Positions 13,158 through 51,018 of a stretch of DNA of 52,143 bases are shown here, in pieces. The DNA comes from a virus. The notes beneath the pieces were generated by a model. It did not search any database and was not told the DNA's origin. It saw nothing but the letters and a program-made list of their open reading frames with translations. Position numbers and translations under genes: made by a program. Numbering within the stretch: the stretch's first letter is position 1; each line of letters opens with the position of its first letter. The DNA is taken from IMG/VR virus record IMGVR_UViG_3300042908_001490, positions 1 through 52,143 of that record. One strand, written 5' to 3'.

Positions 13158-13360
13158 AAAAACGAAAGTCCACATTCAGGGAAAATAACAACATGAAAAG
13201 TTTCGGGAATATCTAGCTCTTCTAAAGTGAAATTAGATAATGATTGGGAATCAAAAGCGATCGCATCTTCCCGGACAACTGCATGATTGTCATAACCTGC
13301 ATTGACATTTTTGAGTTGATAGGAAGTTAGGGTGAATGAGCGATCGCTTATTTTCTTCAT
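13118..13360 (-). CDS. hypothetical protein
   Basis: 80-aa ORF whose start shares one base with the dnaB stop. Confidence 0.45.
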   Translation of the reverse strand: MKKISDRSFTLTSYQLKNVNAGYDNHAVVREDAIAFDSQSLSNFTLEELDIPETFHVVIFPECGLSFLWTLPNSKHSKFT

Positions 13361-35387: not shown

Positions 35388-35479
35388 GCAGACAGGGTTG
35401 CTAACCCTGTTTCGACTTTATGCTTCGTCCAGTAAAATTGCGATCGCATCTTGGATGCCCCACAGGATACCTTTAGGCA

Positions 35480-36310
35480 TTAGCTCTCTTCTGCGTCGAT
35501 GTATTCAGACTCATCGTAGTCATAGTCTTCATAATCTTCCCCTACTTCCTCCATCTGTCTTTCATTTTTAGACTTAGGTGGCTCGGCAAGAATCTCCAAC
35601 AATCTCCGATAAGAAACTGAATAGTCTCTTTCGACACAATCACCATCTTTTAAGATGAAGTAATTTTTGTTATTTGAAGAATACTTCTCGGACAATACTA
35701 TATAGGGATAGTAAACGTCAGGATTAGAGCTTTCCCAAGCTCTCTCGAATCCTATAGGCTTGGGAACTGGAATGTAGCCAAACTCTAATAATTGAGCATC
35801 ACGCTCATCTGGATTATTTTCAGCCCGGCAATTAGCTAGACTATCAAGAACCCAAGTAGGAGTAGGAAATTCTGTATCACTGGGATTGATAGCTACTAAC
35901 TCTTGGGGAACTACAATTTCGCCATCTTTTGACCATTTGTAGCTATACACTAATTGAGTAATGGCTTCGTAATGACAGCCACCAACTCGATCATCTGGAA
36001 GATAGCACTCGATAATACCCCCTTTAAACTCCATCTTGTCTGAGAAGCAATACTGCAAGAAGACATAAGTTCCCGAAGTGCTGGAATATTCTATGGTCAT
36101 GGCTTTCTCGTTAAATGCCATTTCTAGACTTGCACTACCAAATCCGCAGTCGCTAAAAGACCTGCTAAGTTGAATTTTTAGGAATGAGGCATAAACTTCC
36201 TCAATACTGTTCCCGGCAGGGATATAAGTAGTATTGATGGATTTAGATAATCCTGCTAACCAGTAGTTAGCACCGTCAAAGTTGTCAAATTCTGTTTTAA
36301 GTAATTGCAT
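35480..36310 (-). CDS. hypothetical protein with strongly acidic C-terminal tail
   Basis: 276 aa. The tail reads EEVGEDYEDYDYDESEYIDAEES. Confidence 0.65.
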   Translation of the reverse strand: MQLLKTEFDNFDGANYWLAGLSKSINTTYIPAGNSIEEVYASFLKIQLSRSFSDCGFGSASLEMAFNEKAMTIEYSSTSGTYVFLQYCFSDKMEFKGGIIECYLPDDRVGGCHYEAITQLVYSYKWSKDGEIVVPQELVAINPSDTEFPTPTWVLDSLANCRAENNPDERDAQLLEFGYIPVPKPIGFERAWESSNPDVYYPYIVLSEKYSSNNKNYFILKDGDCVERDYSVSYRRLLEILAEPPKSKNERQMEEVGEDYEDYDYDESEYIDAEES

Positions 36311-36343
36311 ATCGCTCTCTATCTCGCTTGTTTTCCATATCTA

Positions 36344-36357
36344 TAGTTGTACACCAT
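36344..36357. promoter_or_regulatory. TGTACA-centred box, copy 1
   Basis: tagttgtacaccat is identical to 36586-36599. It lies upstream of the gene 35480-36310. Confidence 0.5.
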
Positions 36358-36573
36358 CTATTCTGAAATGTCAACTACTTTCCCGAAATTTTCTTGAAAC
36401 CACTCCAATGGCTTATCTGCTAACACTTCTACGAAATTGACTAAATCAGGATTGACAGTTTTCCCGTAACTGCGGGCATATCCTACAGATATTAGTTTTC
36501 TAGTTAAATTCTTTTTACAAGCCTCTGTGCATCTAGCTTTTATCTCTGTTGTCCGGTTTAATGATGGGCGCAT
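36358..36573 (-). CDS. hypothetical protein
   Basis: MRPSLNRTTEIKARCTEACKKNL... read from the ATG at 36573. The N-terminus of the longer track ORF covers a promoter-like TTGACA. Confidence 0.5.
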   Translation of the reverse strand: MRPSLNRTTEIKARCTEACKKNLTRKLISVGYARSYGKTVNPDLVNFVEVLADKPLEWFQENFGKVVDISE

Positions 36574-36585
36574 AATTTTATTTGT

Positions 36586-36599
36586 TAGTTGTACACCAT
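36586..36599. promoter_or_regulatory. TGTACA-centred box, copy 2
   Basis: tagttgtacaccat lies 13 nt upstream of the ATG at 36573. TTGACA lies 19 nt further upstream on the minus strand. Confidence 0.5.
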
Positions 36600-36806
36600 T
36601 AACTATAACAGAGATTTTTGTCAAGGGGTAGTCACGCGAATGAGGAAATATCCAAGAATCCCCATAGAATCAGGATTTGGAGTATCAACTACTGCAACTA
36701 TCTATTAATTCCCTATGGCTATAGTTAAATGCTTATGCTAAAATTAAAACACCTCCCCAAATGCAACTCCGGGAAGGTGTTTCTTATTCTGTACAAACCT
36801 TTGATT

Positions 36807-37922
36807 ATGACTACTATAACATCATCCGGCTTTTTTACGCAAGTCCTAGGCGAAGTTTCTCACCCAATTAATATAGTGAGAGAATATTTAGAAGCATTCG
36901 GCAACAAATGTAAAGCCGCGATCATAACTTGGCTTGACTCATGGACACGCACCAAGATTGCTCAAGGCAAGGACACATGGGTTTGGGAGCGTCAACGCAA
37001 CTTAGCGAAAGAATTGGGATACAACAAGGAAACAATCAATATCCACTTAAACAAGCTAATTGATGATGGCATTATCGAAGTAGCTTTACAAACACCAAAT
37101 AGCTGCTCACGTCTGCTTAAATACAGATTGAATATTGATAACTTAGCTATATTCCTTGGACAGAAAGGGTTTTCGCCATTAAATCGGAATTCCGTACATG
37201 GTAAAACGGATTCCCGGACAACAGAAGACGGAAATCCAGACAGTAACCTAATTCATTCTCTTAATTCAAATATTCCTAACTCTAGTGAATTAATCAATAA
37301 CAGTGATGATGTTGAAGCGCACCCAATTCCTAATTTAGAAGAATTAAGAGAAGAGAAGCCTGTAATTGATCCTCCTGTTGACAAGCCAAAACTAAAATCC
37401 CAACTAGAACAGATAACTCCTCATGAAGACCAGAGTTCCGCCGCCCCGCAGCGCGACGTAACAAATCCAGACGCAGAAATAAATAATCAATTAGTAGCAA
37501 GTTTAGGCGTTACTTTGAATCCTAAGCTAAAACGATTCCTAGCGTCCGTAGCAGCGGAAGAGGTACTAAAGGGACTCGCTGCTTACTACTACGCCACAGA
37601 AGTCAAGGAAGCAGCGATCGCAAGTAAAACTGGTTTTATCATTGACTCCATCAAAAATAACTACTTCGAGAACGAAAATATGTGGATTAACGCGAACGAA
37701 CGGGATAGGTTGTACTTCTTGTTGTCGGCTGGCGCGATCGCAATGGGAGTAGATTTAGTTGGTGGATGGACTGGGGCGATATACAGGGGCGAAATGCTGT
37801 TTAACGGAAAAGACGGCGAAGGAAAGGTTCTCAACTTTAATTTAGTGGCAGAACTGCTTTCTCGCGTAGGACTTGCTAAGACACTGGAAGCTATGCTGGA
37901 GAATTACCTCCTGTCAATTTAA
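36807..37922 (+). CDS. second replication initiator-like winged-helix protein
   Basis: The wHTH-like segment is LAKELGYNKETINIHLNKLIDDGIIEV. It shares QITPHEDQSSAAP with 14811-16151. The ATG at 36807 lies inside the longer track ORF. Confidence 0.55.
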   Translation: MTTITSSGFFTQVLGEVSHPINIVREYLEAFGNKCKAAIITWLDSWTRTKIAQGKDTWVWERQRNLAKELGYNKETINIHLNKLIDDGIIEVALQTPNSCSRLLKYRLNIDNLAIFLGQKGFSPLNRNSVHGKTDSRTTEDGNPDSNLIHSLNSNIPNSSELINNSDDVEAHPIPNLEELREEKPVIDPPVDKPKLKSQLEQITPHEDQSSAAPQRDVTNPDAEINNQLVASLGVTLNPKLKRFLASVAAEEVLKGLAAYYYATEVKEAAIASKTGFIIDSIKNNYFENENMWINANERDRLYFLLSAGAIAMGVDLVGGWTGAIYRGEMLFNGKDGEGKVLNFNLVAELLSRVGLAKTLEAMLENYLLSI

Positions 37923-38034
37923 CTGGAGCAAATGGACTGCGATCGCTCATATCGTGTGCTACCATAGAGAAACACCGGAACTCGTTTGACTTCATATAGG
38001 CTTCATGCCTTGCGAGTTATCAGGGATGGTGTTT

Positions 38035-38106
38035 CGCGGGGTAGTTTAAGTGGTAAAACGCTGCTTTGAGAGCAGCAAAAGGACGGTTCGATTCCTCCCC
38101 CTGCGG
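38035..38106 (+). tRNA. tRNA-like gene, anticodon UGA (Ser codon family), non-canonical
   Basis: I folded it by hand. The acceptor is CGCGGGG/CCCTGCG with one G:U pair. The D arm is GTTT-AAGTGGTA-AAAC. The anticodon arm is GCTGC-TTTGAGA-GCAGC. The T loop is TTCGATT, with a bulged C in the T stem. Position 26 is absent and the variable loop is short. Confidence 0.5.
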
Positions 38107-38116
38107 TTTTATAGCC

Positions 38117-38142
38117 AAAAAAATACCCTCGCGGGGAGGGTA
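38117..38142 (-). terminator. intrinsic terminator
   Basis: The minus strand reads TACCCTC-CCCGC-GAGGGTA followed by TTTTTTT. Confidence 0.7.
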
Positions 38143-38311
38143 GGGATTGTCTATTTTCTAATTGACTCTTGCGCGATCGCTCGCTCACAGGCTTTTATTT
38201 CATCTTCGTACCAGTAGTAATCTGATGTGCCGTATCTAGTGAATCGTTGGGCTTCTTTTAAGTCGCGTAATACTTCTGTTAGCAGTGGCTAGATAGCCGT
38301 TATTATCTTGC

Positions 38312-38674
38312 TCAATCGTGATTGTTAAGTTCATTTTGTTTCTCCAAAATTTCATCTATTAGTTGATCGACCTGGGATAAGTTCTCAGCGCGAATCTTTC
38401 TAAGTTGCTTTACGGTAGGCAAATACTGTAAAGCGATATATAGATTTTCTCCAAAACCGATCGCAACTTTTTCTTTGTTGCAATGCTTGAGCAAATCTTC
38501 TTCGGGAAGGTCTAAAACTTTGGCAAGTTTCCTCGCTACTTGCTTTGTCGGGGTTCTCTTCCCTGACTCAATGCAAGACAAGAATGAGAGGGAAATTTTA
38601 GCTTCTTTAGCTAACTTTGTCTGGGTTAAAGATGCTTTCTCTCTTGCATCTTTAATTATTGTTGCTATTGTCAT
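38312..38674 (-). CDS. XRE-family HTH regulator
   Basis: IKDAREKASLTQTKLAKEAKISLSFLSCIESGKRTP. Confidence 0.8.
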   Translation of the reverse strand: MTIATIIKDAREKASLTQTKLAKEAKISLSFLSCIESGKRTPTKQVARKLAKVLDLPEEDLLKHCNKEKVAIGFGENLYIALQYLPTVKQLRKIRAENLSQVDQLIDEILEKQNELNNHD

Positions 38675-38717
38675 TTGGTTGGGGCGATCGCATTGGTGAG
38701 CGATCGCAATAAATAAT

Positions 38718-38951
38718 TTAAACTAATTCCCAGGAGCCGTCTTCATTCTGTTTGATGTTTGACTCTTCGACGCAAAATGTTTCTGTGCCTGGAGCATCGC
38801 ATTTAGCGAAGCCGTTTTTAATTAAATCTGCTTCAGTATCATCAGCAGACAAAGTAAATACTTCGCAGAAATTACCATTCTTGTAACCCCATCTGCATTC
38901 ACCATCTAATTCAATTTTGTCAAAAACATAATAATTGATTGTTGCATTCAT
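38718..38951 (-). CDS. small hypothetical protein (77 aa)
   Basis: MNATINYYVFDKIELDGECRW... read from the internal ATG, with GGGAG upstream. The N-terminus of the longer track ORF covers the promoter. Confidence 0.55.
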   Translation of the reverse strand: MNATINYYVFDKIELDGECRWGYKNGNFCEVFTLSADDTEADLIKNGFAKCDAPGTETFCVEESNIKQNEDGSWELV

Positions 38952-39057
38952 GATATTTTGCTCCCTAGTGTATTTTGAATTGTGCGGATAAGGCGATAGC
39001 TTCGCTCGCCACAGGCATCGCACCCAGCACCATTTTCTCTCTGACTTCTCTATATTC

Positions 39058-39079
39058 TCATATTCATAAAAGATTGTCA
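39058..39079 (-). promoter_or_regulatory. conserved promoter element, copy 3
   Basis: The minus strand reads TTGACAATCTTTTATGAATATG, followed by a GAATAT -10 at 17-bp spacing. Confidence 0.55.
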
Positions 39080-39104
39080 AGAGAGAAAGTAAAAAATATT
39101 CAGG

Positions 39105-39314
39105 TTAGCTATTCGCTTTGTATGCCGACACGCCTGAGTTGTGAGCCGCAACGAATTTAGCCGCTTTTTCTTCTTCCCACCCCCACTTATTGATTAGGGT
39201 GTACTCTGCATTTTTAAACCACCAAGCTAAATTTACAGTCATTGGAGTTTCGGCATTTCTGGATAAGGCTTTTAATAGCCCTGACTGAGTTTTATAATTC
39301 ATGGGATTTTGCAT
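39105..39314 (-). CDS. hypothetical protein
   Basis: 69-aa ORF from the ORF track. Confidence 0.55.
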   Translation of the reverse strand: MQNPMNYKTQSGLLKALSRNAETPMTVNLAWWFKNAEYTLINKWGWEEEKAAKFVAAHNSGVSAYKANS

Positions 39315-40828: not shown

Positions 40829-42349
40829 TTACTGATACCATCTTTGGACATCAAAAGTGTAAGACCGCACGGCTTCTGTCCAGCTTTTTTGTTTTGCGCC
40901 GAACTTACTAGATTTAAAGTTTTTGAGGTTTTTATAATGATCTTTCAATAACTTTGCTGTCAATTCATGATTACGAGCAGCCGAAATAAGCTCCTCTGGT
41001 TCATTATCCAGACATTCCTTCCATGCGGCTTTTTCTTCCGCTTGTTTTTTGATTTGTGCTAGTTTCTGGGCTGGTTCATAGCCGATATACTCAGCACGGG
41101 CATATCCACAGTCAATCATGTTGTATTCGACTGTTAAACATCCCTCGAAATAACGATATGGGAGTGTTGACGGTTCTTGATAACCACATCCTTTTGCGAC
41201 TACAACTCCATTCTTGAAAATTGGTAAAGGCATAAAACCAAGCATGATATCATCTTGTTTAATAGCAAGCATCCATGAATCCATGTACAGTCCGATACAA
41301 TTACTTGCTTGTTTTAGAATCTTGGTTACTTGCCGAATCTCAACATACAAGAGAGTATCTGTGTAGGCTACTCCTGTTTCTAGCGTGTAAGATGTGTCGG
41401 TAGAATCTGCTGATTTTAGGGTTACTTTCCCTTCTTTCAACTCTACCCATACAGGGTAAGCTTGATTTTTCTTTTTGTCACCAGCGCGGATAAACATTGG
41501 AAGGTGTTGCAACATTTCGGCTTGCTGGAAATAGCAAACTTGAGTATCAGGAATACTAATCTTTTCTAAATCAATTGATTGCTTGATTAGCTTAGTTGTT
41601 ACCGTAACTTTTCTTTCTACATCAACAAATTTAATGCTTTCACCGTCAATATAGAAAGATGGATTTACCAGTATATCCAATGGGATAGAAGCAGGAATTA
41701 CAGCTTCTATATCCGCTTCATACCCGTTAGCGATCGCGGCTATATCGCATCCATTAGAAGCTATCAGCGATCCTTTGCTGGCAGTTATCCCAGAATACAT
41801 AGGGTTGAGAACGTCGTTTTTAGTGAAAGGAATAAGTTTACCAAACTTTTCTGGCAGGTTGGGGATATATTGTAATTCCCCGTATACATCGGGTGTAATC
41901 GGAAAATGATATTCCTCTAAGCACGTTTCCTCATAAAGCCGTACTTTGTATCGTTTGTGGGCGATCGCTATTTCACGATCTTCTACCTGTTGAATACTCA
42001 TATCCGCAAGCGGTTTACTATCTGTTGTCTTGACTACATCTACAATTTTTTCTAACAAAAAAGCCGCAACACAAATCGCACCATCTTCTATGATTCCACC
42101 GTTTAATTCTACGGTGATAAAAGTCTCAAGATTACTTGCTGTTAAAGTGATCTTGCTGTGCTTGGCTTTGAGTAAAAATGTAGATAAGACAGGATGCTTG
42201 GGGTGATCTGGAATTGCTTTTTTACAGATTGCGATCGCTCTTAGCAATTCAGAAGGTTTAACAAAAATATTAATTCTCGGTTCTACTGTTACTCTAATTT
42301 TTTCTAACAGTATATGTAAACTATCAATCAAATTTAGTACGGCTTGCAT
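40829..42349 (-). CDS. DnaN-like sliding clamp with ~130-aa C-terminal extension
   Basis: SELLRAIAICKKAIPDHPKHPVLSTFLLKAKHSKITLTASNLETFITVEL follows the beta-clamp N-terminal pattern. IASNGCDIAAIA aligns with ATDGHRLA, and MLGFMPLP aligns with the clamp C-terminus. The protein is 506 aa in total. Confidence 0.7.
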   Translation of the reverse strand: MQAVLNLIDSLHILLEKIRVTVEPRINIFVKPSELLRAIAICKKAIPDHPKHPVLSTFLLKAKHSKITLTASNLETFITVELNGGIIEDGAICVAAFLLEKIVDVVKTTDSKPLADMSIQQVEDREIAIAHKRYKVRLYEETCLEEYHFPITPDVYGELQYIPNLPEKFGKLIPFTKNDVLNPMYSGITASKGSLIASNGCDIAAIANGYEADIEAVIPASIPLDILVNPSFYIDGESIKFVDVERKVTVTTKLIKQSIDLEKISIPDTQVCYFQQAEMLQHLPMFIRAGDKKKNQAYPVWVELKEGKVTLKSADSTDTSYTLETGVAYTDTLLYVEIRQVTKILKQASNCIGLYMDSWMLAIKQDDIMLGFMPLPIFKNGVVVAKGCGYQEPSTLPYRYFEGCLTVEYNMIDCGYARAEYIGYEPAQKLAQIKKQAEEKAAWKECLDNEPEELISAARNHELTAKLLKDHYKNLKNFKSSKFGAKQKSWTEAVRSYTFDVQRWYQ

Positions 42350-42402
42350 GATTTTCTCCTGTTAAATTAAAAGTGCCGGGACGACCCAGCACTAAAGTTT
42401 AG

Positions 42403-43233
42403 TTATTCTTGATCTTCGTCGTCCTCATCCTCATATTCCTCATCGCCGTCGCCGTCGGTGTCGGGTTCTTCCTCCTGTTCTTCTGTTAGTTTCCTTAGTG
42501 CGATCGCGCTTAATCTTTGCACTAATTCCAGAAGTTCGACTACTTCTAAATCCATGCTTTCAATTTGGGCTAAAAGTTCCAACACGCGATCGCTCACTTC
42601 GTCGTCGTCACAATCATCTTCATAGTCTACGGTGGTGGCTAGTTTTAACTCTTGTTGATCCATGATATCCTCGGTTTGTTGTGGTGAAATTGCCAGTTTC
42701 AATGCTTCGGCAATACGTGAATAATTCCACTGTTTATCATAGGCTTTACGCCAATCAAACTCAGGAAGTTCAGTAATGCCGAAGTCATGTTCTAGCATAA
42801 ATAAGTAGTCTGCTTTTTCTTTTGCAGCCCACGTTTTATATATCTTTGTTCCTGCTTTATCGGTCAGGATGGTTAGAATTTCTAATAGTAAATTATCCGA
42901 TATGTTCTCTAATTTGATGCTGTTGCTGTATAACATATCGCAACTAATACTAACGCTTTTGGAGTCAATTGTCAAGTGTTCTGAGATACGCAAAGACTTG
43001 TTATCAGCAGGGAGTTTTGGGGGATTACAGTCTAAAATTGCGGCTGCTTTTTTACCAAATTCTACCCTTTGATCCATCTGATATTTGTTCTCCAAAAAGA
43101 TTTTTTTGCACCTTTCATAAGATTCGATGTAATCAGGGATTAACCGTTTATTGATGTCTAAATTGTATGAGCCGGGGACAATATTACCAAAGTAGCGATC
43201 GTTTGTATGATTAGGCAATAAAAAAACCGTCAT
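42403..43233 (-). CDS. hypothetical protein with poly-acidic tail
   Basis: 276 aa. An internal acidic stretch reads DYEDDCDDDEVSD. The tail reads EEQEEEPDTDGDGDEEYEDEDDEDQE. Confidence 0.6.
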   Translation of the reverse strand: MTVFLLPNHTNDRYFGNIVPGSYNLDINKRLIPDYIESYERCKKIFLENKYQMDQRVEFGKKAAAILDCNPPKLPADNKSLRISEHLTIDSKSVSISCDMLYSNSIKLENISDNLLLEILTILTDKAGTKIYKTWAAKEKADYLFMLEHDFGITELPEFDWRKAYDKQWNYSRIAEALKLAISPQQTEDIMDQQELKLATTVDYEDDCDDDEVSDRVLELLAQIESMDLEVVELLELVQRLSAIALRKLTEEQEEEPDTDGDGDEEYEDEDDEDQE

Positions 43234-43245
43234 TTCTGACGGGTT
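43219..43245 (-). terminator. terminator-like hairpin containing the next start codon
   Basis: The minus strand reads CCGTCA-GAAA-TGACGG followed by TTTTTTT. The ATG of 42403-43233 spans the loop/stem junction. Confidence 0.5.
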
Positions 43246-43258
43246 TCGGCAAGCGATC

Positions 43259-43492
43259 TTAACCTTGCATCTTTTTAACCTCTACTTTGTATCCTAGACA
43301 ATTTAACGTTTGATTGATTTTGACCCATGTTTCAGGGTCTTTTTTTAGCCATACAGACAGACGCTTGTGGATTGTTCCTAGTGTGTCGCCTGTCTGCAAA
43401 GAGATTTCCTGAGCAGCGTCGTAAGTGCTGTTATAACTGCTTAGGATTTGTTCAAGGGTTTGGGATAGGTTCATTTTGTCATCTTTTTCCAT
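43259..43492 (-). CDS. small HTH-like protein
   Basis: 77 aa. The segment AAQEISLQTGDTLGTIHKRLSVWLKK is helix-turn-helix-like. Confidence 0.5.
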   Translation of the reverse strand: MEKDDKMNLSQTLEQILSSYNSTYDAAQEISLQTGDTLGTIHKRLSVWLKKDPETWVKINQTLNCLGYKVEVKKMQG

Positions 43493-43509
43493 TCCAATAG
43501 TGTCAATAC

Positions 43510-44271
43510 CTATCTTAATTTTCTAGGAATGGGTTTGTTGCTTTTTTTAAGCTTCGATATCTCCCAGTCCTTAACTATTCTATTTAGCTCTGACTGAGAC
43601 TCTATTGTGTAAGTCCCTTTCTTATACCCAATAACTTGGGCAAAATCATCAGAACTTCTTATGCTAATTCTTTCTACGTCTACAGAGAAAAATTCTTTTA
43701 AATCACTAGGAAGAGAATCAAATAAAGGAATTACAACATCATTTAGCCTTAGTATCTCTGCTTGTTTCCTTAGTTGGGCAAATTTAGCACCTTCTTCTTT
43801 AATCCATTGTAGCTGTGCAAAATCAATATCAAAGAAACCAACCTCAAGACATTTTTTACCGTAGAAAACATCTATGTATTCGTTTCTTTCGTAGACACTA
43901 CACCCCGGAGACCCCGCAAAAAACTCTTTTACGGCTTTAATATTGTAGTTTTTTGTTACTTTATTGTTGAGGAATTTTATAATCTGAGGATAAACCTCTT
44001 CTAAATTTAAGCAATCTTCATCCTGAAGTTGAGCTTTAGGATCTAACGGTACTATTACTTCATAAGTCCCATAATTAGGGATTCTTATGGAACTTCCGTT
44101 TACGTGAAAATCTAAATCTAAATGCCAAGATGGTTGATGCCACACTTTAAACCCTATCTGTGCTAATAAATTTTTGATATCTTCAGGTAAAGCATCAAAT
44201 TTCAAACTAATAAGGTAGTTTGTACCACCTTCATAACAACCTAACTCTTCATGTCTGTTGTATAGTGCCAT
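43510..44271 (-). CDS. hypothetical protein
   Basis: 253-aa ORF from the ORF track. Confidence 0.6.
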   Translation of the reverse strand: MALYNRHEELGCYEGGTNYLISLKFDALPEDIKNLLAQIGFKVWHQPSWHLDLDFHVNGSSIRIPNYGTYEVIVPLDPKAQLQDEDCLNLEEVYPQIIKFLNNKVTKNYNIKAVKEFFAGSPGCSVYERNEYIDVFYGKKCLEVGFFDIDFAQLQWIKEEGAKFAQLRKQAEILRLNDVVIPLFDSLPSDLKEFFSVDVERISIRSSDDFAQVIGYKKGTYTIESQSELNRIVKDWEISKLKKSNKPIPRKLR

Positions 44272-44302
44272 CTTGTTTTCTCCTTTATTTCTTTAACTTC
44301 TT

Positions 44303-44333
44303 ACACTATAGAGTAATTTATCTATAGTGTCAA
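44303..44333 (-). promoter_or_regulatory. consensus promoter overlapped by a 10-bp inverted repeat operator
   Basis: The minus strand reads TTGACA-N17-TATAGT. The inverted repeat is acactataga (44303-44312) / tctatagtgt (44321-44330). Confidence 0.65.
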
Positions 44334-44348
44334 TACTCTTCGTAAAAT

Positions 44349-44377
44349 AAAAAAATCCCCAGCGATAAACCAGGGAT
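44349..44377 (-). terminator. intrinsic terminator
   Basis: The minus strand reads ATCCCTGG-TTTATCG-CTGGGGAT followed by TTTTTTT. Confidence 0.65.
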
Positions 44378-44382
44378 CCCTA

Positions 44383-44511
44383 TTACTTTTTATATTCCTC
44401 TAAAAGTTTGTCCACGACTGGCAACAAATCAAGGGGAATATATCTTGATTCTCCCTGACCTGTGACTGGTCTACCGCGCTTTTTAGTAGTGCGATTTTGC
44501 CACAAGTCCAT
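44383..44511 (-). CDS. small RHH-like protein (42 aa, below ORF-track cutoff)
   Basis: MDLWQNRTTKKRGRPVTGQGESRYIPLDLLPVVDKLLEEYKK. Its stop is 5 nt before the terminator. Confidence 0.45.
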   Translation of the reverse strand: MDLWQNRTTKKRGRPVTGQGESRYIPLDLLPVVDKLLEEYKK

Positions 44512-44645
44512 TAACCCAAAGGGATAGCTTGACCTACTTTATAACTAGGATTTACTGGTTGTGATTTTAACCTATTCATCAAACTGCTGATGATTACGCA
44601 CTAAGTATTTCAGCGACATAATTGTATAAAAAGCATACTTGAGGA

Positions 44646-46103
44646 CTATATGCTTTTCATGATGCTATTCAAGTTTTTTGTATCTTCAAAACTGGTAACG
44701 GGAATAATTGAATCTGCTACCGTAGCAAGGTTTTTTACATAACTGGAGTTATTCGATCCCACTAATCCCACTAAAATTCCATGTACTTTGAGGTCAATTC
44801 TCTTTTTCTCTGCGGACAACTTTTCCAGAAATTCATTATCTTCAATAATGCTGCGGTCTTCGCCATCAGTTAACAGAACTACATCTGCTTTTTTGTAGGT
44901 GGCATCTGAACTAATAATTTTTAAGGCTTTACTTAATGCTGGTTTCCACGCGGTTGAAGCCTTGCCATGAAACATCATGAACTCATCTATGTTTTCATGG
45001 GTTATGTCCTTGTTGGATATGGTGTAGCAGACTCGACCGCCAAAACCAATGAATAGACACTCTCTATTCTGTTTCTTAGCCGCTTTGGATATCATCAAAG
45101 CGAACGCTTTAGCCCACACATATCTGCGCTCACCGCTTAACAGGCTACCCATTGAACCAGCCTCATCTACCAGAACAATAACGGGTCCGCTACCTCTGGG
45201 AGCAATTTTATTCCGGTACTGGGATAATTTGCGCTCGGCAAACTCCAAGTAGAATTGATCCTCATCCTTGCAGTATTCGTCTAGCACTAGCCGGCTGACA
45301 TCATTCCCATTCTCGCAACGGGCTGATTCTTTCTTGGAGCCTGCGGTGGTTCTATGGAAACAACTAAACATTCCCCGCATCTTGCCCATCATATTCAAGA
45401 TTCTCTGAATGTGCGGCTGGGAATACTTGACAGTTATGGCCACTTGTTTAGCCTGTTCCCGTTCATTCATTCCTGGCATATCGCCAGTTAGTTCTCCTGA
45501 ACGGCTAGACTCTAGGGATGCCAAAGCATTTTCAACGGCTTGGTTGCAAATCCGCTTGCAGTAGTCGGTTAGATGATTCTCGTCCTGGTTGTACGGGTTA
45601 ATCAGAACCTTATTAAATTCTTCGTAGGCTTTCTCCCATGCGGCTACGCGGGATTGATGTTGTGTAGATGCAGCAATGCCTAACTTGCTTGCTGACTTGA
45701 TCTGTCTTTGCAGTGTGGGCAAATCGGCGTTGTCACTGTGGTAAATCCTGGGAAAATTTAGCCCTTGTAGTAGCCATGCGATCGCGCACAGTTCGGCGTG
45801 GTTGTTCTGTTCCGTGCCGAAGGATTGGCTTCTCTCTAATAATTCACCCCATCGGGGGGACACGGTTAGTCCCAAGTGAAAAGCCTCTTTCCAGACTTCG
45901 TGCAGTTCCGGTGGTGTATCGTCGTGGAACTTGCGATCGTCTTGAGACTTGATGCGGGTTAATAGTTCCCTGCCAAAGTCATGCTTGAGGTCGAGTTCAA
46001 TACCGGGGAGGGATTGAACGTTATTCAGAACGGCTTGAATGACGCTGCTATCTTCTAGCAGGATGTCATAAGCCGTGCGGGCTTCGTTGCTTATTTTCCA
46101 CAT
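44646..46103 (-). CDS. VWA-domain protein (ViaA-like partner of the AAA+ ATPase)
   Basis: The MIDAS-like motif is VIVLVDEAGSMGS (DxAGS rather than DxSGS). VVLLTDGEDRS is also present. The N-terminal region is about 300 aa and helical. Confidence 0.8.
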   Translation of the reverse strand: MWKISNEARTAYDILLEDSSVIQAVLNNVQSLPGIELDLKHDFGRELLTRIKSQDDRKFHDDTPPELHEVWKEAFHLGLTVSPRWGELLERSQSFGTEQNNHAELCAIAWLLQGLNFPRIYHSDNADLPTLQRQIKSASKLGIAASTQHQSRVAAWEKAYEEFNKVLINPYNQDENHLTDYCKRICNQAVENALASLESSRSGELTGDMPGMNEREQAKQVAITVKYSQPHIQRILNMMGKMRGMFSCFHRTTAGSKKESARCENGNDVSRLVLDEYCKDEDQFYLEFAERKLSQYRNKIAPRGSGPVIVLVDEAGSMGSLLSGERRYVWAKAFALMISKAAKKQNRECLFIGFGGRVCYTISNKDITHENIDEFMMFHGKASTAWKPALSKALKIISSDATYKKADVVLLTDGEDRSIIEDNEFLEKLSAEKKRIDLKVHGILVGLVGSNNSSYVKNLATVADSIIPVTSFEDTKNLNSIMKSI

Positions 46104-46104
46104 A

Positions 46105-47532
46105 TTATTGATTACTTAATTCAATTCTGGTTTTTAAATGACCGATCATTTCTCGGCATTTTTCAACAGATAATGCGGTATCTTCTGCTGTTAATTTTCC
46201 CAAGGCTTTGATATCTTTGGCTATAGATGCTATATCGCCGGCACATCCTAGTAGCTTGTCTATTTTTTGTTCCGTAGTCATCTTGGGTTGACTAGAAATA
46301 GAAAACACGACTTCGTTATACTTGTCTTTTGCCGTTCCTAACAGCTTATACATCTTTTCTAATGACTCTTTCCTAGCGGTATCATCCAACCGAGAAACAT
46401 CATTTTTAAGCCGTTGCTGAAATTCTTGGGTTAATTCCCTAAGCATATTTAATTGTTTTTTGGAATAAATACCGATCGCTTCTAACTCATTTGTCTGTTG
46501 GGCAATGCTATCAACGCGATCGCATAGGTCAGTCGCAAGCTCTAAGCGTTGATCTTTGCCATAATATAAAGAGTTATTCCAGTCATCGGAACAGGCATGA
46601 ATTGCTTTTTTAACTTCGTTGACTTTACCCTTAATCTCTTTGATCTCATCATTGATAATCTTGCTTACTGCGGTTATGTCGTCTGGATTTGACCAGATAC
46701 AATCCGGCAGGAGGGTTTGAATGACATCCAAATCAACCGCATCCTTGTTTTGCACCCAAGCAAAGGCGCGGAAAAAATCGTACATTTGAAACATTTTTCG
46801 GTCTGATATCTCAAACCCCTTAACCCGCAACTTCTCGCGCAGGTCATACAGGACAGGAAGCATCGGCTCAATGGATACTGCCATAGCTTCAGTTTCGGCT
46901 TGTTCGATATCCCATGAAGCTAATTCAATTGTTACCTTGGGTTTATGCCCGTGAATTTTCCGTCTGGATAAGTCCATGAAATTATCTTTTTCACGGATGT
47001 ACCCGATCCAGGTTTTCCAGATAAATCTATCCATGAAAGCGTTGCCGCTATCGGGGACTTCATTGGAACTTGCTAATAAAGACCGCAAGGGAACGGCCTG
47101 GGCGTTCGGATTGAAAAACACTCTTTCGTTAATCACCTTGAGAGTGCTATTCAATAGATCCATGTCGGCTTTGAAAATCTCGTCAATGTAGGCTACTTCC
47201 GCTTCTGGTAGCCTGTTTTTGGTGTTGCGTTTATATACTTCATTGTCTTTGAGTTCCCGAATAGAAACGGGACCAAAGAACTCATCAGGTTTACTGGTGG
47301 GACTGGCCAATATTGACCAGAACTTGCCACCGAGGGCATTGCATAATAATTCAATCAAATATGTTTTCCCTGTACCGGGGGGACCGAGTAAGATCCCGTG
47401 ATTCTTGCAGATATACAATGCAAGCAGGGCATCAATGTGATGTTCTCTCTCAAGACATTCCCGCCGCAACTGTTTTCTGAGTATGTGAATTTTATCTTTC
47501 ACGGTGAGAGAGTTTAGGTCTATGAGTACCAT
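46105..47532 (-). CDS. MoxR-class AAA+ ATPase, RavA-like
   Basis: Walker A is LLGPPGTGKT and Walker B is AYIDEIFKA. The run GPVSIRELKDNEVYKRNTKNRLPEAEV..LNSTLKVINERVF..LLASSNE parallels my memory of E. coli RavA. The C-terminus is a long coiled coil. Confidence 0.85.
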   Translation of the reverse strand: MVLIDLNSLTVKDKIHILRKQLRRECLEREHHIDALLALYICKNHGILLGPPGTGKTYLIELLCNALGGKFWSILASPTSKPDEFFGPVSIRELKDNEVYKRNTKNRLPEAEVAYIDEIFKADMDLLNSTLKVINERVFFNPNAQAVPLRSLLASSNEVPDSGNAFMDRFIWKTWIGYIREKDNFMDLSRRKIHGHKPKVTIELASWDIEQAETEAMAVSIEPMLPVLYDLREKLRVKGFEISDRKMFQMYDFFRAFAWVQNKDAVDLDVIQTLLPDCIWSNPDDITAVSKIINDEIKEIKGKVNEVKKAIHACSDDWNNSLYYGKDQRLELATDLCDRVDSIAQQTNELEAIGIYSKKQLNMLRELTQEFQQRLKNDVSRLDDTARKESLEKMYKLLGTAKDKYNEVVFSISSQPKMTTEQKIDKLLGCAGDIASIAKDIKALGKLTAEDTALSVEKCREMIGHLKTRIELSNQ

Positions 47533-47534
47533 GA

Positions 47535-47864
47535 TTAAATTTCCTCTAATAATTTTTGTAAGTATGCGATCGCGCTATCTACTTTGTCAGCGATCGCATC
47601 GCTGACCGCAGGTGTCGCATTGTCGGCAGATGTAACAGTAATTGGAACTTCGGCGGGAGTGACGGGCGCGGGTGTGGTAACTCCAGTCAATGAAACAGCA
47701 AATTCCCACCGTTCAGGAGTGTATTTTGCCCACCAATACCAGGCTCCACCGAGTCGAGTCGATCTAAACTTGTACCCTCTCAAGCGATCGCGCAAAGCCT
47801 GATCGGGTTTGTCATCAAAGAATATTTCTATACCGTCTTTTTCGGTATTTCTTTCAATTCTCAT
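47535..47864 (-). CDS. hypothetical protein, first gene of the AAA+/VWA triad
   Basis: 109 aa. Its stop is 2 nt before the ATPase ATG. Confidence 0.6.
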   Translation of the reverse strand: MRIERNTEKDGIEIFFDDKPDQALRDRLRGYKFRSTRLGGAWYWWAKYTPERWEFAVSLTGVTTPAPVTPAEVPITVTSADNATPAVSDAIADKVDSAIAYLQKLLEEI

Positions 47865-48040
47865 AGATTCTCCAATAGCATAGACAATCGGCTAATAGAA
47901 CACTTGGGCACAGTCCACCAAAGCATTGCACCAATTTTCTTGGCGTATGCTGATGTCTGTTCCTGAAACAGATTGTGCATAGGTTCTATGTGTGAACAGG
48001 CGATCGCACTCCGACTCTGAGGTGGCGCGATCGCGCCAAG

Positions 48041-48580
48041 CTATTCAAATCCGCACTCTCTCCAAAGTGCATAGGGCATACCATGATCTGAGAATGAGTT
48101 ATGCCATACCGCGTAGGAATTGAATTTGTAGGGTTTGATGCCAAGCGATCTTGTCTCTATCTGTTCCGGTGTATGAGCGCGGAACGGCTTGACGATTATT
48201 ACCAATTTTTTAATCAGGTTTAAAAGTGCGGGTGTGCTGTATTCTCCCATTAAGGTATGTAGGACACCTATAGCTACGTCTGGACAAAATTCTGTCCAGT
48301 ACCGATATTTGGGACGGCATACATAGGGATCGTATCCCTGTATTTGCAGTTCTAGCGATATCGCGGCGTATCTCTCACCCTCTTGCTGTGCAGCAACGGC
48401 GATCCCGTGTTGTACCGCGTCGTAGGTACTGCAAATTTCCTGGGCTGTTTTGATAGCGATCTGTAGCTTGCGATCGCTACTGACTTTTGATTTTGACTGT
48501 GACTGATACTTTTTAACAGTCTTATCGATGCTATCTAGCGTTAGTTGGATGCTAGATATCAGATCCGTTATTAGTTCCAT
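48041..48580 (-). CDS. MELIT-module protein A
   Basis: The N-terminus is MELITDLISSIQLTLDSIDKTVKKYQSQSKSKVS. The C-terminus is unique. Confidence 0.6.
   Translation of the reverse strand: MELITDLISSIQLTLDSIDKTVKKYQSQSKSKVSSDRKLQIAIKTAQEICSTYDAVQHGIAVAAQQEGERYAAISLELQIQGYDPYVCRPKYRYWTEFCPDVAIGVLHTLMGEYSTPALLNLIKKLVIIVKPFRAHTPEQIETRSLGIKPYKFNSYAVWHNSFSDHGMPYALWRECGFE
48479..48580. repeat. 102-bp direct repeat, copy A (5' end of MELIT gene A)
   Basis: It matches 48901-49002 with about 5 mismatches by my reading. Confidence 0.9.
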
Positions 48581-49002
48581 AGTTGATTTAATAGTAGAAT
48601 TTTTGCGGTTGGATGATCTGCGGTAACGTGAATTTCTATAGTTAGGTGATCATCATAGATACTATAGAAGGTAAACTCTTTGCCGTTGATTCTTAGGAAC
48701 GAAAAATCATATTCGGCACTACCGAACCATACCTTCCCAGATATTTCGGCATAGCGACCAGGTGCGCTATGAACTTTTTTTATTAGATCCCTATCTTCTA
48801 GGTGTTGCTGAAAGTCGGCGATCTTAATGTGTTCCCACCTACTTCTTTCGGCTCTACCTGAATTCATTATGTCGTCGCATAATTTTTGAAAATTGCTGTC
48901 ACTGACTTTTGATTTTGACTGTGACTGATACTTTTTAACAGTCTTATTGATACTATCTAGCGTTATCTGGATGCTAGATATTAGATCCGTTATTAGTTCC
49001 AT
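48571..49002 (-). CDS. MELIT-module protein B
   Basis: The internal ATG at 49002 gives MELITDLISSIQITLDSINKTVKKYQSQSKSKVS. The C-terminus is unrelated to that of A. Confidence 0.55.
   Translation of the reverse strand: MELITDLISSIQITLDSINKTVKKYQSQSKSKVSDSNFQKLCDDIMNSGRAERSRWEHIKIADFQQHLEDRDLIKKVHSAPGRYAEISGKVWFGSAEYDFSFLRINGKEFTFYSIYDDHLTIEIHVTADHPTAKILLLNQLWN
48901..49002. repeat. 102-bp direct repeat, copy B
   Basis: See copy A. It is followed by the 11-bp tandem duplication attagttccat x2 (48992-49013). Confidence 0.9.
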
Positions 49003-49015
49003 ATTAGTTCCATAG

Positions 49016-49324
49016 TTAATAAACTTTGTGAATAGTTCCAGAGAATAGATAATTCTGCTTATCGTGATAAGTGCCGGACAATAGATCCCCGCTTTTGTAT
49101 CCTGGATTTTGGCACGATACGCGGACAATTCCGTATTTGTAGGAATATCCAAAATAGTGAAAATTTGAGGAATACATCGGGATCTGACTGTTGATAGTTC
49201 CCAGATAGACTACTATTATCCGTTCTAATCTATCTTTTGTTTTATCTGATATCGAGTTGATTAGTGGTTCTAAATTGTCTAATGTAGTTTTGATATTGTT
49301 GATTAGATTTGTGATTAGTTCCAT
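49016..49324 (-). CDS. MELIT-module protein C (diverged)
   Basis: MELITNLINNIKTTLDNLEPLINSISDKTKDRL... Confidence 0.5.
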   Translation of the reverse strand: MELITNLINNIKTTLDNLEPLINSISDKTKDRLERIIVVYLGTINSQIPMYSSNFHYFGYSYKYGIVRVSCQNPGYKSGDLLSGTYHDKQNYLFSGTIHKVY

Positions 49325-49375
49325 AATTTCTTGATAGTAGAATACAGCACTAAAATAGTGCTGTATTGTGGTTAG

Positions 49376-50083
49376 TTATTTAGTGGACTGAGTTGGTGGA
49401 GTGCTAGTTGGTGGAGTGTTTGTTGGTGGTTTAGAAGTTGGTGGAGTGTTTGTTGGTGGTTTAGAAGTTGGTGGAGTGCTAGTTGGTGGAGTGTTTGTTG
49501 GTGGTTTAGAAGTTGGTGGAGTGCTAGTTGGTGGAGTGTTTGTTGGTGGTTTAGAAGTTGGTGGAGTGTTTGTTGGTGGCTTAGAAGTTGGTGGAGTGCT
49601 AGTTGGTGGTTTAGAAGTTGGTGGAGTGTTTGTTGGTGGTTTAGAAGTTGGTGGAGTGTTTGTTGGTGGTTTAGAAGTTGGTGGAGTGCTAGTTGGTGGA
49701 GTGCTAGTTGGTGGTTTAGAAGTTGGTGGAGTGCTAGTTGGTGGAGTGCTAGTTGGTGGTTTAGAAGTTGGTGGAGTGCTAGTTGGTGGAGTGCTAGTTG
49801 GTGGTTTAGAAGTTGGTGGAGTGATAGTTGGTGGGATATCGGATTGATCAACCTCAACTAATTTAGTTTCTAATTTTTGGCACTCAATGCCGCTATTAAT
49901 TGCGTTGTTATTGCTTAACTGCAATTTAGCCAAAATTTTCTGAGAATTATCAAAATAGTTTTTTAGGTTATTAATAGCGTCTTGGCTATTTTGATTTAAC
50001 TCAACTAATAGCTCGGCTGTTTTTTTAAGTTCTGCAACTTGACTTTTTAGTGATTCTATGATTCGATCTCTGTTGTCTGTCAT
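49376..50083 (-). CDS. coiled-coil protein with ~30 PPTS(K/T)/PPTNT pentapeptide repeats
   Basis: The N-terminus is about 80 aa and helical. It is followed by a Pro/Thr-rich repeat that runs to the C-terminus. Confidence 0.7.
   Translation of the reverse strand: MTDNRDRIIESLKSQVAELKKTAELLVELNQNSQDAINNLKNYFDNSQKILAKLQLSNNNAINSGIECQKLETKLVEVDQSDIPPTITPPTSKPPTSTPPTSTPPTSKPPTSTPPTSTPPTSKPPTSTPPTSTPPTSKPPTNTPPTSKPPTNTPPTSKPPTSTPPTSKPPTNTPPTSKPPTNTPPTSTPPTSKPPTNTPPTSTPPTSKPPTNTPPTSKPPTNTPPTSTPPTQSTK
49391..49835. repeat. ~30 x 15-bp tandem repeat
   Basis: The units agttggtggagtgct, agttggtggagtgtt and tgttggtggtttaga alternate. All three frames on both strands are open across the array. Confidence 0.95.
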
Positions 50084-50160
50084 GATTTTAATTCCTGTTA
50101 AGTTGTGATTGACTAATGAGATAGATCGTTATGTATCAGATAACGATCTATTAATTGGTT

Positions 50161-51018
50161 CTAATTTTGAGACGCGATCTGAGACGCGATCGCGGTTTTG
50201 ACATCTTCCTTGGTAACGCCGTTATCAATAACGTAGTTGCACAAGATGTCAAGATCGCTGCACTTGCGACCGTCTTTAGAAAATGCGTAGTGTAGACGCT
50301 GCCAAGTTGTATCGCTATTTTCAGACCAATAATTGATGATGTAATCACACCATTCTTTACTAACTTGTATTAGTTTGTCACCACCTAACAATACCTTGAT
50401 AACTCTCATGTCTTCTGCAATTGTGGCCACGCCATAGCCGTTACTTAACTCAATATCCGCCGCGATCTCCCGTGCTGATAACGCGCTATTATACCAACTA
50501 GATAAGAGATTAAAGTAATTAAAGTTTTTATCACTTACTCTCCTAGTAGATGTAGTTTGTGTTTTTTCTGGTCTATTTGCTTTGACTGCTTGTTTATTTT
50601 CAGATTTTGAAACTTTGATCGCTAGTGCCGATAATTTATTGATCAATTCAAGTAATTCCTCAGATGATAAAAATGATTTAGTAATAACTTCTATCATCTC
50701 ATTAGAAGATAAGGAAGAACACTGGTCAGCGATCGCATCAATATCGTGTCCTTCTAATTTTGATAAGTTCTTAGTAGTTGCATCTTTATTATCGGATACC
50801 GTCACGGTATGATCGTCTGATAACCAATAAGACTCATTTAAGCTAGTAGCATGATTAGTAAATGAGAAGTATTCGTTGTCATCATGTACTAGTAATTCAA
50901 TGAGAGATACATCATGTTTATTATCTAATGTAATTTCTAGTATCTCATTGCTTAACTCTGTTTGATGGTTGCCAAATTTAGCGCGTAGTTCAGTTAAGTT
51001 GAATGATTGAGTTGTCAT
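50161..51018 (-). CDS. hypothetical protein
   Basis: The ATG at 51018 (MTTQSFNL...) lies inside the GTG-initiated track ORF. The segment EELLELINKLSALAIKV resembles ELLELVQRLSAIALRKL in 42403-43233. Confidence 0.6.
   Translation of the reverse strand: MTTQSFNLTELRAKFGNHQTELSNEILEITLDNKHDVSLIELLVHDDNEYFSFTNHATSLNESYWLSDDHTVTVSDNKDATTKNLSKLEGHDIDAIADQCSSLSSNEMIEVITKSFLSSEELLELINKLSALAIKVSKSENKQAVKANRPEKTQTTSTRRVSDKNFNYFNLLSSWYNSALSAREIAADIELSNGYGVATIAEDMRVIKVLLGGDKLIQVSKEWCDYIINYWSENSDTTWQRLHYAFSKDGRKCSDLDILCNYVIDNGVTKEDVKTAIASQIASQN

Follow-up and report, generated by a model that had tools for sequence, protein, structure and literature searches.

Few uncharacterised gene pairs are as widespread in the tailed phages of bacteria and archaea as MoxR-VWA pairs, which have been noted since 2007 (Bacillus phage 0305phi8-36) and later in haloviruses and jumbo phages. 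One such pair lies on the minus strand, at 44646-47532, of the IMG/VR record IMGVR_UViG_3300042908_001490 (52,143 nucleotides, analyzed over its full length and referred to here as the window), and it raises the question of what a module of this type does for a phage and on which protein it acts. In MoxR-VWA systems such as RavA-ViaA, CbbQO, NorQD and midasin, an ATP-driven AAA+ ring works with an adaptor whose VWA domain, with its MIDAS (metal ion-dependent adhesion site), grips the client. With a probability that we put at roughly 0.55, the pair in the window is, in a lytic-type tailed cyanophage akin to Aphanizomenon phage vB_AphaS-CL131 (CL131; GenBank MG209611), the MoxR-VWA module and a remodeller acting in the early, DNA-metabolism phase. 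An initial annotation, made from the sequence alone, had described the locus as a RavA/ViaA-like triad of a small protein, a MoxR ATPase and a VWA protein, closed by a small gene of its own and a terminator. The four minus-strand open reading frames (ORFs) on which that description was built (109, 475, 485 and 42 amino acids [aa]) were all found in place (Table 1), as were the short spacers between the first three, of 2 nt at 47533-47534 and 1 nt at 46104.

The ATPase and its VWA partner

Judged by its sequence, the 475-aa protein is a MoxR family AAA+ ATPase with intact catalytic residues. Its Pfam matches are bpMoxR (PF20030; 5e-36, 124 bits against a cut-off of 27), AAA_5 (2e-18, 67 bits against 22) and, at residues 225-293, the RavA-type lid AAA_lid_8 (PF17868; 4e-10, 39.6 bits against 22.8), and in PHROGs it falls in phrog_19600, annotated as "ATPase" (3.6e-100). 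The best solved relative by far is Escherichia coli RavA (1.2e-33 over residues 13-291; PDB). Across 24 homologues no variation was seen at Walker A (G50-K56), Walker B (D117/E118), sensor 1 (N157), the Arg finger (R169) or sensor 2 (R245), in line with the earlier description of a RavA pattern across the whole AAA+ core. As is usual for the MoxR family, the gene for a VWA partner is adjacent, at the 1-nt spacer, and a Shine-Dalgarno-like GAGGAA stands ahead of the ATPase start. Past residue ~295 the protein continues with a C-terminal tail of ~180 aa that contains a single proline, gave only weak matches to helical or coiled-coil families, and had no significant sequence or profile match in the PDB; this tail looks helical and is specific to the clade.

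The 485-aa partner was assigned mainly by structure, its VWA_2 match being below the Pfam cut-off (2.5e-4, 22.1 bits against 27), and it belongs to phrog_24053 (1.8e-29). An AlphaFold2 model built from 16 sequences shows a VWA fold at residues 305-485, mostly at pLDDT 82-93 and dropping to 63-76 at residues 441-460 and 471-485, for which Foldseek found many solved VWA domains (1e-5 to 1e-6, probability 1.00). The ~300 residues ahead of it are predicted to be helical, with medium confidence for residues 1-200 and low confidence for 202-303, so that both parts of the architecture that had been read from the sequence, the helical N-domain and the VWA domain with an altered MIDAS (DEAGS), were recovered. 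For the N-domain, Foldseek returned only generic VWA matches and the PDB profile search was empty; a Ro60/TROVE fold was considered and dropped, the long Foldseek alignments having a root mean square deviation (rmsd) of ~25 Å. The MIDAS reads D313-E-A315-G-S317, T384 and D413, which is four of the five positions of the DxSxS...T...D pattern and not the complete site. The family alignment shows no variation at D313, S317, T384 or D413. Ala315 is private to the window sequence; the 96.5% identical relative (contig L018) and the further close relatives examined have Thr at this residue, and distant relatives have Ser. No fused peptidase or effector domain was found on the VWA protein with Pfam. 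The ATPase, VWA and 109-aa genes are all under purifying selection, with dN/dS values of 0.14-0.17, 0.08-0.12 and 0.19-0.39, respectively (0.08-0.39 overall).

The pair shares with E. coli RavA-ViaA the AAA+ core with AAA_lid_8, the helical N-domain and VWA domain of the partner, and the adjacent, tightly coupled genes, and in this sense the RavA/ViaA-like architecture of the initial annotation stands. RavA being the closest solved structure, and RavA and ViaA the top named NCBIfam hits, one could take the genes for host-derived true orthologues, an auxiliary metabolic pair acting on host respiratory complexes. This is the least probable of the readings that we weighed. Both proteins fall far short of the equivalog cut-offs, the ATPase scoring 141 bits against 681 for RavA (NF010054) and its partner 43 against 500 for ViaA (NF008230). 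The RavA profile was matched only at positions 6-313 of 498, the remainder, which holds the C-terminal triple-helical and LARA, LdcI-binding region, being unmatched, and the ATPase tail is unrelated to it by sequence; the ViaA match (residues 289-413 to profile positions 309-425) is to the VWA part alone, and the N-domain is again unrelated by sequence to that of ViaA. Of the domain matches anticipated from the initial annotation, AAA_5/MoxR was obtained, VWA_2 stayed below its threshold and ViaA failed beyond the VWA part. The setting differs as well, a phage replication arm here and an enterobacterial chromosome for RavA-ViaA, and no cellular genome representative exceeded 34% identity.

The best Pfam match of the ATPase, bpMoxR, points in another direction, to a phage-borne defence or abortive infection system of the MoxR-vWA conflict type. 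Kaur et al. are said to have described in 2020 ternary conflict systems of MoxR, vWA and beta-propeller proteins (Pfam bpMoxR). With these, as with CbbQO, NorQD and CoxDE, the window pair has in common an AAA+ ring and a MIDAS-bearing client adaptor; it differs in having no beta-propeller, effector, Rubisco, NOR or CO-dehydrogenase context and in that the recurrent third partner of viral pairs of its kind is DUF6744 (see below). The 124-bit score notwithstanding, we hold a defence system of this type to be very improbable: the bpMoxR profile covers residues 18-182, a generic MoxR core, five flanking ORFs (179, 193, 253, 276 and 506 aa) had no beta-propeller, iSTAND, VMAP or effector hits in Pfam, the VWA protein has no effector domain fused to it, and PADLOC gave only generic P-loop hits.

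Phage context and gene neighbourhood

When all window ORFs were compared with the CL131 genome (tblastn), the window proved to be collinear with CL131 from ~56 kb to 112.5 kb, the two having in common the terminase and DnaB-like helicase genes (Table 1) and many further hypothetical genes. PHROGs identified a terminase, a helicase, a replication-initiator-like protein and a processivity factor, and the HIP1 octamer GCGATCGC, whose abundance is a cyanobacterial signature, is present in 126 copies where 0.3 would be expected. Given the CL131 collinearity, the PHROG matches and the HIP1 signature, the window represents the non-structural arm of a tailed cyanophage of the CL131 type, together with its terminase genes; the structural genes of CL131 are found in the part of its genome outside the window's coverage. 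A phage search with the locus returned CL131 as the sole match, in a gene annotated as "MoxR-like ATPase," and a blastn comparison with 72,556 plasmids (PLSDB) returned none. The replicon had initially been described as a phage or plasmid without virion genes. CL131 collinearity supports the first half of that alternative and, with the PLSDB result, rules out the second; as to virion genes, the arm is indeed non-structural, but it does include the small and large terminase genes. Every close relative of the pair sits in a phage-like contig, in agreement with the proposal that the pair is carried on a mobile replicon.

In CL131 the genes follow the order gp149, gp148 (LPD29 protein), gp147 (MoxR), gp146 (VWA-like) and gp145 (DnaN-like). 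The pair gp147/gp146 (45% and 30% identity to the window ATPase and VWA protein, respectively) has the same gene order and strand, lies in the collinear arm and is followed by a DnaN-like gene, and the upstream protein, gp148, ends with the same small domain and C-terminal helix motif as the protein encoded upstream of the window pair. Unlike in the window, this small domain is fused to LPD29 in a protein of 280 aa, DUF6744 is absent, there is neither a ~360-aa gene nor a cassette between the VWA gene and dnaN, and the MIDAS is degenerate (EESAA and TSGD).

ATPase homologues (119 clusters) were traced to contigs, and the close relatives among them carry a co-directional string of six genes encoding DUF6744, a small protein, MoxR, VWA, an acidic-tailed protein of ~360 aa and a DnaN-like protein. 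The complete string was seen in three contigs (L015, L017 and L007) and, save for the small protein, which is uncalled there, in L006. The ATPases of the string members are 58-90% identical to that of the window, the DUF6744 proteins have 350-373 aa, the small proteins 103-105 aa and the DnaN-like proteins 507-532 aa. Among the other relatives, no small protein was called in L180, which has a full DUF6744 gene, the contig L179 begins at the small-protein gene and its protein in fifth place has 236 aa, and L011, like CL131, has an LPD29 protein in place of DUF6744 and no ~360-aa gene. The DnaN-like gene is the last of the string, and its position is filled also in L006, L007, L011, L015, L179, L180 and CL131 (gp145). 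More distant relatives keep DUF6744-MoxR-VWA with different neighbours. Since the pair is part of an uninterrupted same-strand string with a beta-clamp homologue and an acidic-tail protein, we infer that its client would belong to the early or DNA-metabolism machinery (replisome or recombination) and not to the virion.

The module itself is a mosaic, the ATPase being closer to that of L015 (89.5% aa identity, against 82.0% to L017) and the VWA protein closer to that of L017 (93.8%, against 83.3% to L015), which indicates recombination inside the module among co-circulating phages.

To place the locus in a wider frame, hidden Markov models (HMMs) from the proteins of these contigs were used on 80 IMG/VR loci that encode this ATPase subfamily, DUF6744 being counted within 8 kb; a single-protein scan of IMG/VR had given no close relative, and an alignment-based scan was successful. 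The VWA partner is downstream in 78 of the 80, the other two ending at a contig edge; DUF6744 is present in 56, co-directional in 55 of those, and the small domain in just 1. Among 80 loci taken from representative cellular genomes, 54 have the VWA partner and 6 have DUF6744. On these viral and cellular locus counts, MoxR plus VWA is the invariant core and DUF6744 a putative third partner that is virus-enriched. The 109-aa gene, by comparison, is a clade-specific accessory and not the conserved triad member that the initial annotation had made of it; the co-occurrence with the ATPase that was to be expected of a triad holds for the VWA protein and fails for the 109-aa domain. There was no relative above 34% identity among 185,579 species-representative genomes, and the close homologues are not chromosomal housekeeping genes.

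Neighbours that recur in the other viral loci are a fused multisubunit RNA polymerase (12 loci), a reverse transcriptase (13), a PD-(D/E)XK nuclease (5), an AAA_24 ATPase (4) and an SNF2 helicase (3), with Rad52 in L014; no capsid or tail gene was found among them. Two viral contigs of 150-160 kb (L012 and L013) have DUF6744 and VWA on one strand, divergent from the MoxR gene, with papain-like (Peptidase_C1) genes and a faint AcrVA2-like hit nearby.

These neighbourhoods bear directly on the possibility that the pair is a virion-assembly chaperone for tail or capsid components. The idea has a precedent in Acidianus two-tailed virus (ATV), whose p618/p892 are the sole viral pair with experimental data and, as here, combine a viral MoxR AAA+ protein with a VWA cofactor in a chaperone-type role; published proposals point to morphogenesis, a role put forward also for the MoxR-vWA(-peptidase) pair that group 2.2 jumbo phages carry, and the MoxR proteins of ATV and of a Sulfolobus virus are detectable distant relatives of the window ATPase. 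The likeness to p618 is, however, limited to the AAA core (30% identity over ~155 residues), and the ATV proteins are virion associated and act in extracellular tail growth, whereas nothing in the window points to the virion. Here the module shares its strand with the replication genes and belongs to the non-structural arm, tens of kilobases from the CL131 structural block, its neighbours in this and other viral loci are DNA and RNA enzymes, and the VWA protein lacks a fused peptidase. We therefore regard a role in virion assembly as quite unlikely and keep to an early, DNA-metabolism role.

Two further phages carry pairs that can be compared with that of the window. Bacillus phage 0305phi8-36 (gp66/gp63) and Moorella phage MTATph1 (CDS0115/0114), where the pairs are annotated as subunits of a "metalloprotein chaperonin," have ATPases of the same subfamily (31-32% identity; 471 aa in gp66 and a short ~373 aa in MTATph1) and VWA partners of the same family (26-31% identity), which lie among non-structural genes. 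They differ from the window in having the canonical DxSGS MIDAS and no DnaN neighbour.

Proteins encoded upstream of the pair and a proposed mechanism

No intact co-directional DUF6744 gene, which in relatives encodes about 350-389 aa, was found in the window. What is left of it is a stub in which the N-terminal 32 residues of DUF6744 are joined in frame to its last 7, with a stop that overlaps the start of the 109-aa gene (ATGA). The stub is 86% identical to residues 1-35 of the DUF6744 proteins (369-373 aa) of L007, L015 and L017, and in comparison with L015, ~999 bp (333 codons) between two CTATTAGCCG repeats are gone. The stretch 47300-48400, deletion junction included, is identical in the contigs of four independent metagenome runs from lakes or freshwater, so that the deletion is not an assembly artefact, and at least 60% of the sampled words were recovered in 20 runs; an expression look-up gave a single RNA run, with 5% of the sampled words. 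A separate in-frame stub of DUF6744, of 62 codons, is present in L018. In-frame deletion alleles of this gene thus circulate in lakes as a natural genetic experiment, with a cultivable relative, CL131, that grows on Aphanizomenon.

The full-length protein was modelled with AlphaFold2 (pLDDT 69.7) as an alpha/beta region (14-212), a helical or coiled-coil segment (215-311), a disordered proline-rich linker and a terminal helix. Comparison with the PDB gave nothing credible (TM ~0.1, rmsd ~31 Å), and comparison with BFVD gave only uncharacterised viral proteins, among them one of Haloarcula virus HVTV-1 (2.8e-15), a virus for which a vWA protein encoded near an AAA ATPase has been reported. No mention of DUF6744 was found in the literature searched.

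The 109-aa protein had no hit in Pfam and a match to PHROG 27491 (2e-8). Its first ~60 residues form a domain with the consensus N.EK.GIE..F..KP....R..L...GFR......WYAK, which is without a Pfam model and homologous to the C-terminal domain of CL131 gp148, where LPD29 precedes it in a fusion. In an exhaustive HMMER search this domain turned up in 183 representative proteins, some of 2,000-4,000 aa, in N-terminal, C-terminal or internal position. When 100 of the 183 were compared with Pfam, LPD29 appeared in 22, an N6 or Eco57I-type DNA methylase in several, and DUF3560, LPD25, LPD30 and DUF5710 in 1 to 3 each. Polyvalent proteins are proteins of phages and conjugative elements built from such modules, predicted bioinformatically to act early against host defences, and by these associations the domain of the 109-aa protein is a promiscuous one of the polyvalent-protein type.

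The N-terminal parts of DUF6744 (...AISRLSMLLEDL), the small protein (...AIAYLQKLLEEI) and the LPD29 fusion (...AIAEVNELLATLGM) are unrelated, and all three continue with a Pro/Thr/Ala-rich or acidic linker and end with the same kind of C-terminal helix. Searched as LL[EA][EDNT][ILFY] within the last nine residues, the motif is found in 3 of 357 six-frame ORFs of the window, namely the 39-codon stub, the 109-aa protein and the 42-aa ORF, all of which flank the pair, and in 1 of 687 ORFs of the whole CL131 genome, gp148. In other loci of the clade its carriers are, one off-target case apart, the genes that lie directly upstream of MoxR. The 56 viral DUF6744 proteins of the wider survey are all without it, and the ATPases beside them, where identifiable, are nearly all of 365-443 aa, with no ~180-aa tail. 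Motif and ATPase tail thus go together, the former being present in the tail-bearing clade and absent beside tail-less ATPases, and the LLExΦ helix may be a docking motif. As a clamp-binding motif it was rejected; the helix does not fit the QL[SD]LF or QLxLxL consensus, for which reason no clamp binding is claimed.

In the mechanism that we propose for an early-acting remodeller, the ATPase would form a hexameric ring, as expected by homology, and the 485-aa protein would be its ViaA-like cofactor, gripping an acidic residue of the client protein with its VWA/MIDAS domain and coupled to the ATPase through the helical N-domain. The pair would then spend ATP to remodel, assemble or release a protein complex. 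DUF6744, the fusion of LPD29 with the small domain, and the 109-aa protein could be interchangeable adaptors or clients, tethered by an AIxxLxxLLExΦ C-terminal helix to the clade-specific helical tail of the ATPase; the 39-codon stub has kept this helix. The candidate docking motif yields specific binding predictions, and if the client were the phage clamp or replisome, MoxR biology would extend from metalloenzyme maturation to DNA replication. New here are the association with DUF6744, the natural deletion alleles and the candidate docking motif, which are useful leads and not a new category.

A bolder version of this mechanism would make DUF6744-MoxR-VWA a virus-specific remodelling machine of three components on the phage replisome, with LLExΦ plug-in adaptors in the clade of Nostocales cyanophages. 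The machine would handle the phage beta-clamp or the acidic-tail protein, and DUF6744, the LPD29-small-domain protein, the 109-aa protein and possibly the 42-aa peptide would be tethered to the ATPase tail in the manner of Clp adaptor tethering peptides or of the EEVD tails of Hsp70/Hsp90 clients. We offer this version as speculation and with distinctly low confidence.

The same upstream proteins can be read differently, as target-specific adaptors (LPD29, small-domain and DUF6744 proteins) of a counter-defence or host-takeover device. The 109-aa domain and LPD29 are typical of polyvalent proteins, with their predicted early action against host defences, the locus is plastic (adaptor swaps, two DUF6744 deletions, a cassette insertion and mosaic identity), and two large viral contigs have faint AcrVA2-like hits close to the triad. 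Against this, the MoxR-VWA-DUF6744 core spans cyanophages to Bacillus and Moorella phages, with a DUF6744-like fold in a haloarchaeal virus, and such breadth would be unusual for anti-defence genes; the beta-clamp linkage suggests a job internal to the phage, and an anti-defence function of LPD29 has not been demonstrated. Counter-defence is, for us, unlikely, if the least unlikely of the alternatives.

Several observations weigh against a remodeller of the early, DNA-metabolism phase. DUF6744 has been lost in the lineage of the window, and the proposed third partner is therefore dispensable. The DnaN-like gene is found in only 1 of the 80 viral loci, making the clamp linkage specific to the cyanophage clade. 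As the MIDAS is weakened in the window by a change from Ser/Thr to Ala, and in CL131 is degenerate, the pair may not need to bind its client through a metal. The motif pattern was chosen after the sequences had been seen, and its link to the tail amounts to one clade and one evolutionary event. The VWA N-domain, the ATPase tail and DUF6744 are without informative structural relatives. In the literature searched there was no tested function for any MoxR-VWA pair of a bacterial phage, and the only viral pair studied experimentally, that of ATV, concerns tail development.

The cassette and other features of the window

Table 1. Position and basis of assignment of the features discussed in the text
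Feature	Coordinates	Strand	Description or evidence
Small and large terminase genes	3345-5430		tblastn against CL131, PHROGs
DnaB-like helicase	13360-14769		tblastn against CL131, PHROGs
506-aa DnaN-like sliding-clamp homologue	40829-42349	-	Pfam DNA_pol3_beta, 7.4e-9; phrog_947 "DNA polymerase processivity factor," 1.3e-20
276-aa truncated homologue of the ~360-aa protein	42403-43233	-	68% identity to residues 78-361 of the L006 protein
~1.5-kb replacement cassette	43160-44645	.	Alignment to L015; swaps out 332 bp (L015 5799-6130)
Sigma-70-like promoter match	44305-44333	-	TTGACA, 17-nt spacer, TATAGT; 11/12 consensus positions; ahead of the 253-aa ORF
Intrinsic-terminator-like hairpin	44351-44381	-	-17.4 kcal/mol, z = -3.8, 0/200 shuffles as good
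42-aa orphan ORF	44383-44511	-	Basic KKRGRP N-terminal part, C-terminal ...VDKLLEEYKK
485-aa protein, helical N-domain (~1-300) and VWA domain (305-485)	44646-46103	-	AlphaFold2, Foldseek, PHROGs
475-aa MoxR-type (RavA-like) AAA+ ATPase	46105-47532	-	Pfam, NCBIfam, PHROGs, PDB profile
109-aa protein	47535-47864	-	N-terminal ~60-aa domain, Pro/Thr/Ala-rich linker, C-terminal helix ending LLEEI
DUF6744 remnant, 39 codons in frame	47861-47980	-	Alignment to the DUF6744 of relatives

Downstream of the VWA gene, a cassette has replaced the 5' end of the ~360-aa gene and brought in the 42-aa ORF, the terminator, the promoter-like site and two orphan ORFs, of 253 aa (no hit in Pfam, PHROGs or tblastn) and 77 aa (none in PHROGs). 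As the cassette is missing in every relative whose sequence extends beyond the VWA gene (L006, L007, L009, L015, L017, L179, L180, L011 and CL131), the 42-aa gene and the terminator are a lineage-specific insertion and not, as first proposed, the operon's own end; in relatives the string runs on. The terminator as such was confirmed at 44351-44381 as a stable hairpin, with a 13-pair stem followed by the U-run UUUUUUUAUUUU, and on its predicted structure it is a credible intrinsic terminator. For the 42-aa ORF, which had been called RHH-like, nothing in Pfam, NCBIfam, PHROGs or PADLOC reached E <= 1, tblastn against phages and plasmids was likewise empty, and all compared relatives lack the ORF, so the RHH label is unsupported. 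The stretch 42594-45777, which covers the cassette, contains no HIP1, and this fits a recent foreign origin of the cassette; other HIP1-free gaps of ~2 kb exist in the window.

The truncated 276-aa protein lacks the N-terminus and has an internal gap of ~17 residues and an acidic tail (...DGDEEYEDEDDEDQE). Its ~360-aa homologues, which had no family hit, have at their end, in L006, L007, L015 and L017, a very acidic tail that includes a single aromatic residue (...EEPDTDDDEEYDEDEDQE) and recalls, by analogy, the C-terminal tails of phage single-stranded DNA-binding proteins and helicases, or DNA mimics.

On the other side of the module, three adjacent and partly overlapping minus-strand ORFs of 179 aa (48041-48580), 193 aa (48571-49152) and 102 aa (49016-49324) have in common the N-terminal sequence MELIT[DN]LI..I..TLD...., which starts at residue 51 in the 193-aa ORF. 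All three are tandem paralogues with relatives in CL131 (gp149) and among the ORFs of L006 and L007, and those of 179 and 193 aa had no family hit. Next to them, the C-terminal two thirds of a 235-aa ORF (49376-50083, minus strand) consist of tandem PPTS[KT]PPTSTPPTS repeats, which read LHQL and GGV in the other frames and coincide with a spike in GC skew (+0.27 at 48-50 kb). Its N-terminal 122 residues are 70% identical to a repeat-free ORF of 126 aa in L006. An Rfam scan of 42000-50500 detected no RNA family.

Elsewhere in the window, the large terminase (3832-5430, 532 aa) aligns through residues 77-532 to the 3' 1.36 kb of the 2.8-kb CL131 gp059 (MG209611 58844-61651), from which it follows that gp059 has, after its first ~75 codons, ~1.2 kb (~400 codons) that the window phage does not have, possibly an intein or a homing-endonuclease insert. 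A 203-aa ORF (8605-9216) matches just the first 131 residues of the 555-aa CL131 gp069, annotated as a dCTP deaminase (93% identity), and may be a truncated or domain-split version of it. Lastly, the block at ~35400-39300 has almost no counterpart in CL131 and is probably another lineage-specific insertion; it contains a 397-aa ORF (36729-37922, plus strand) with a weak match to replication-initiation proteins (phrog_428, 1.7e-8) and the sole tRNA gene of the window, tRNA-Ser(TGA), at 38034-38107 on the plus strand.

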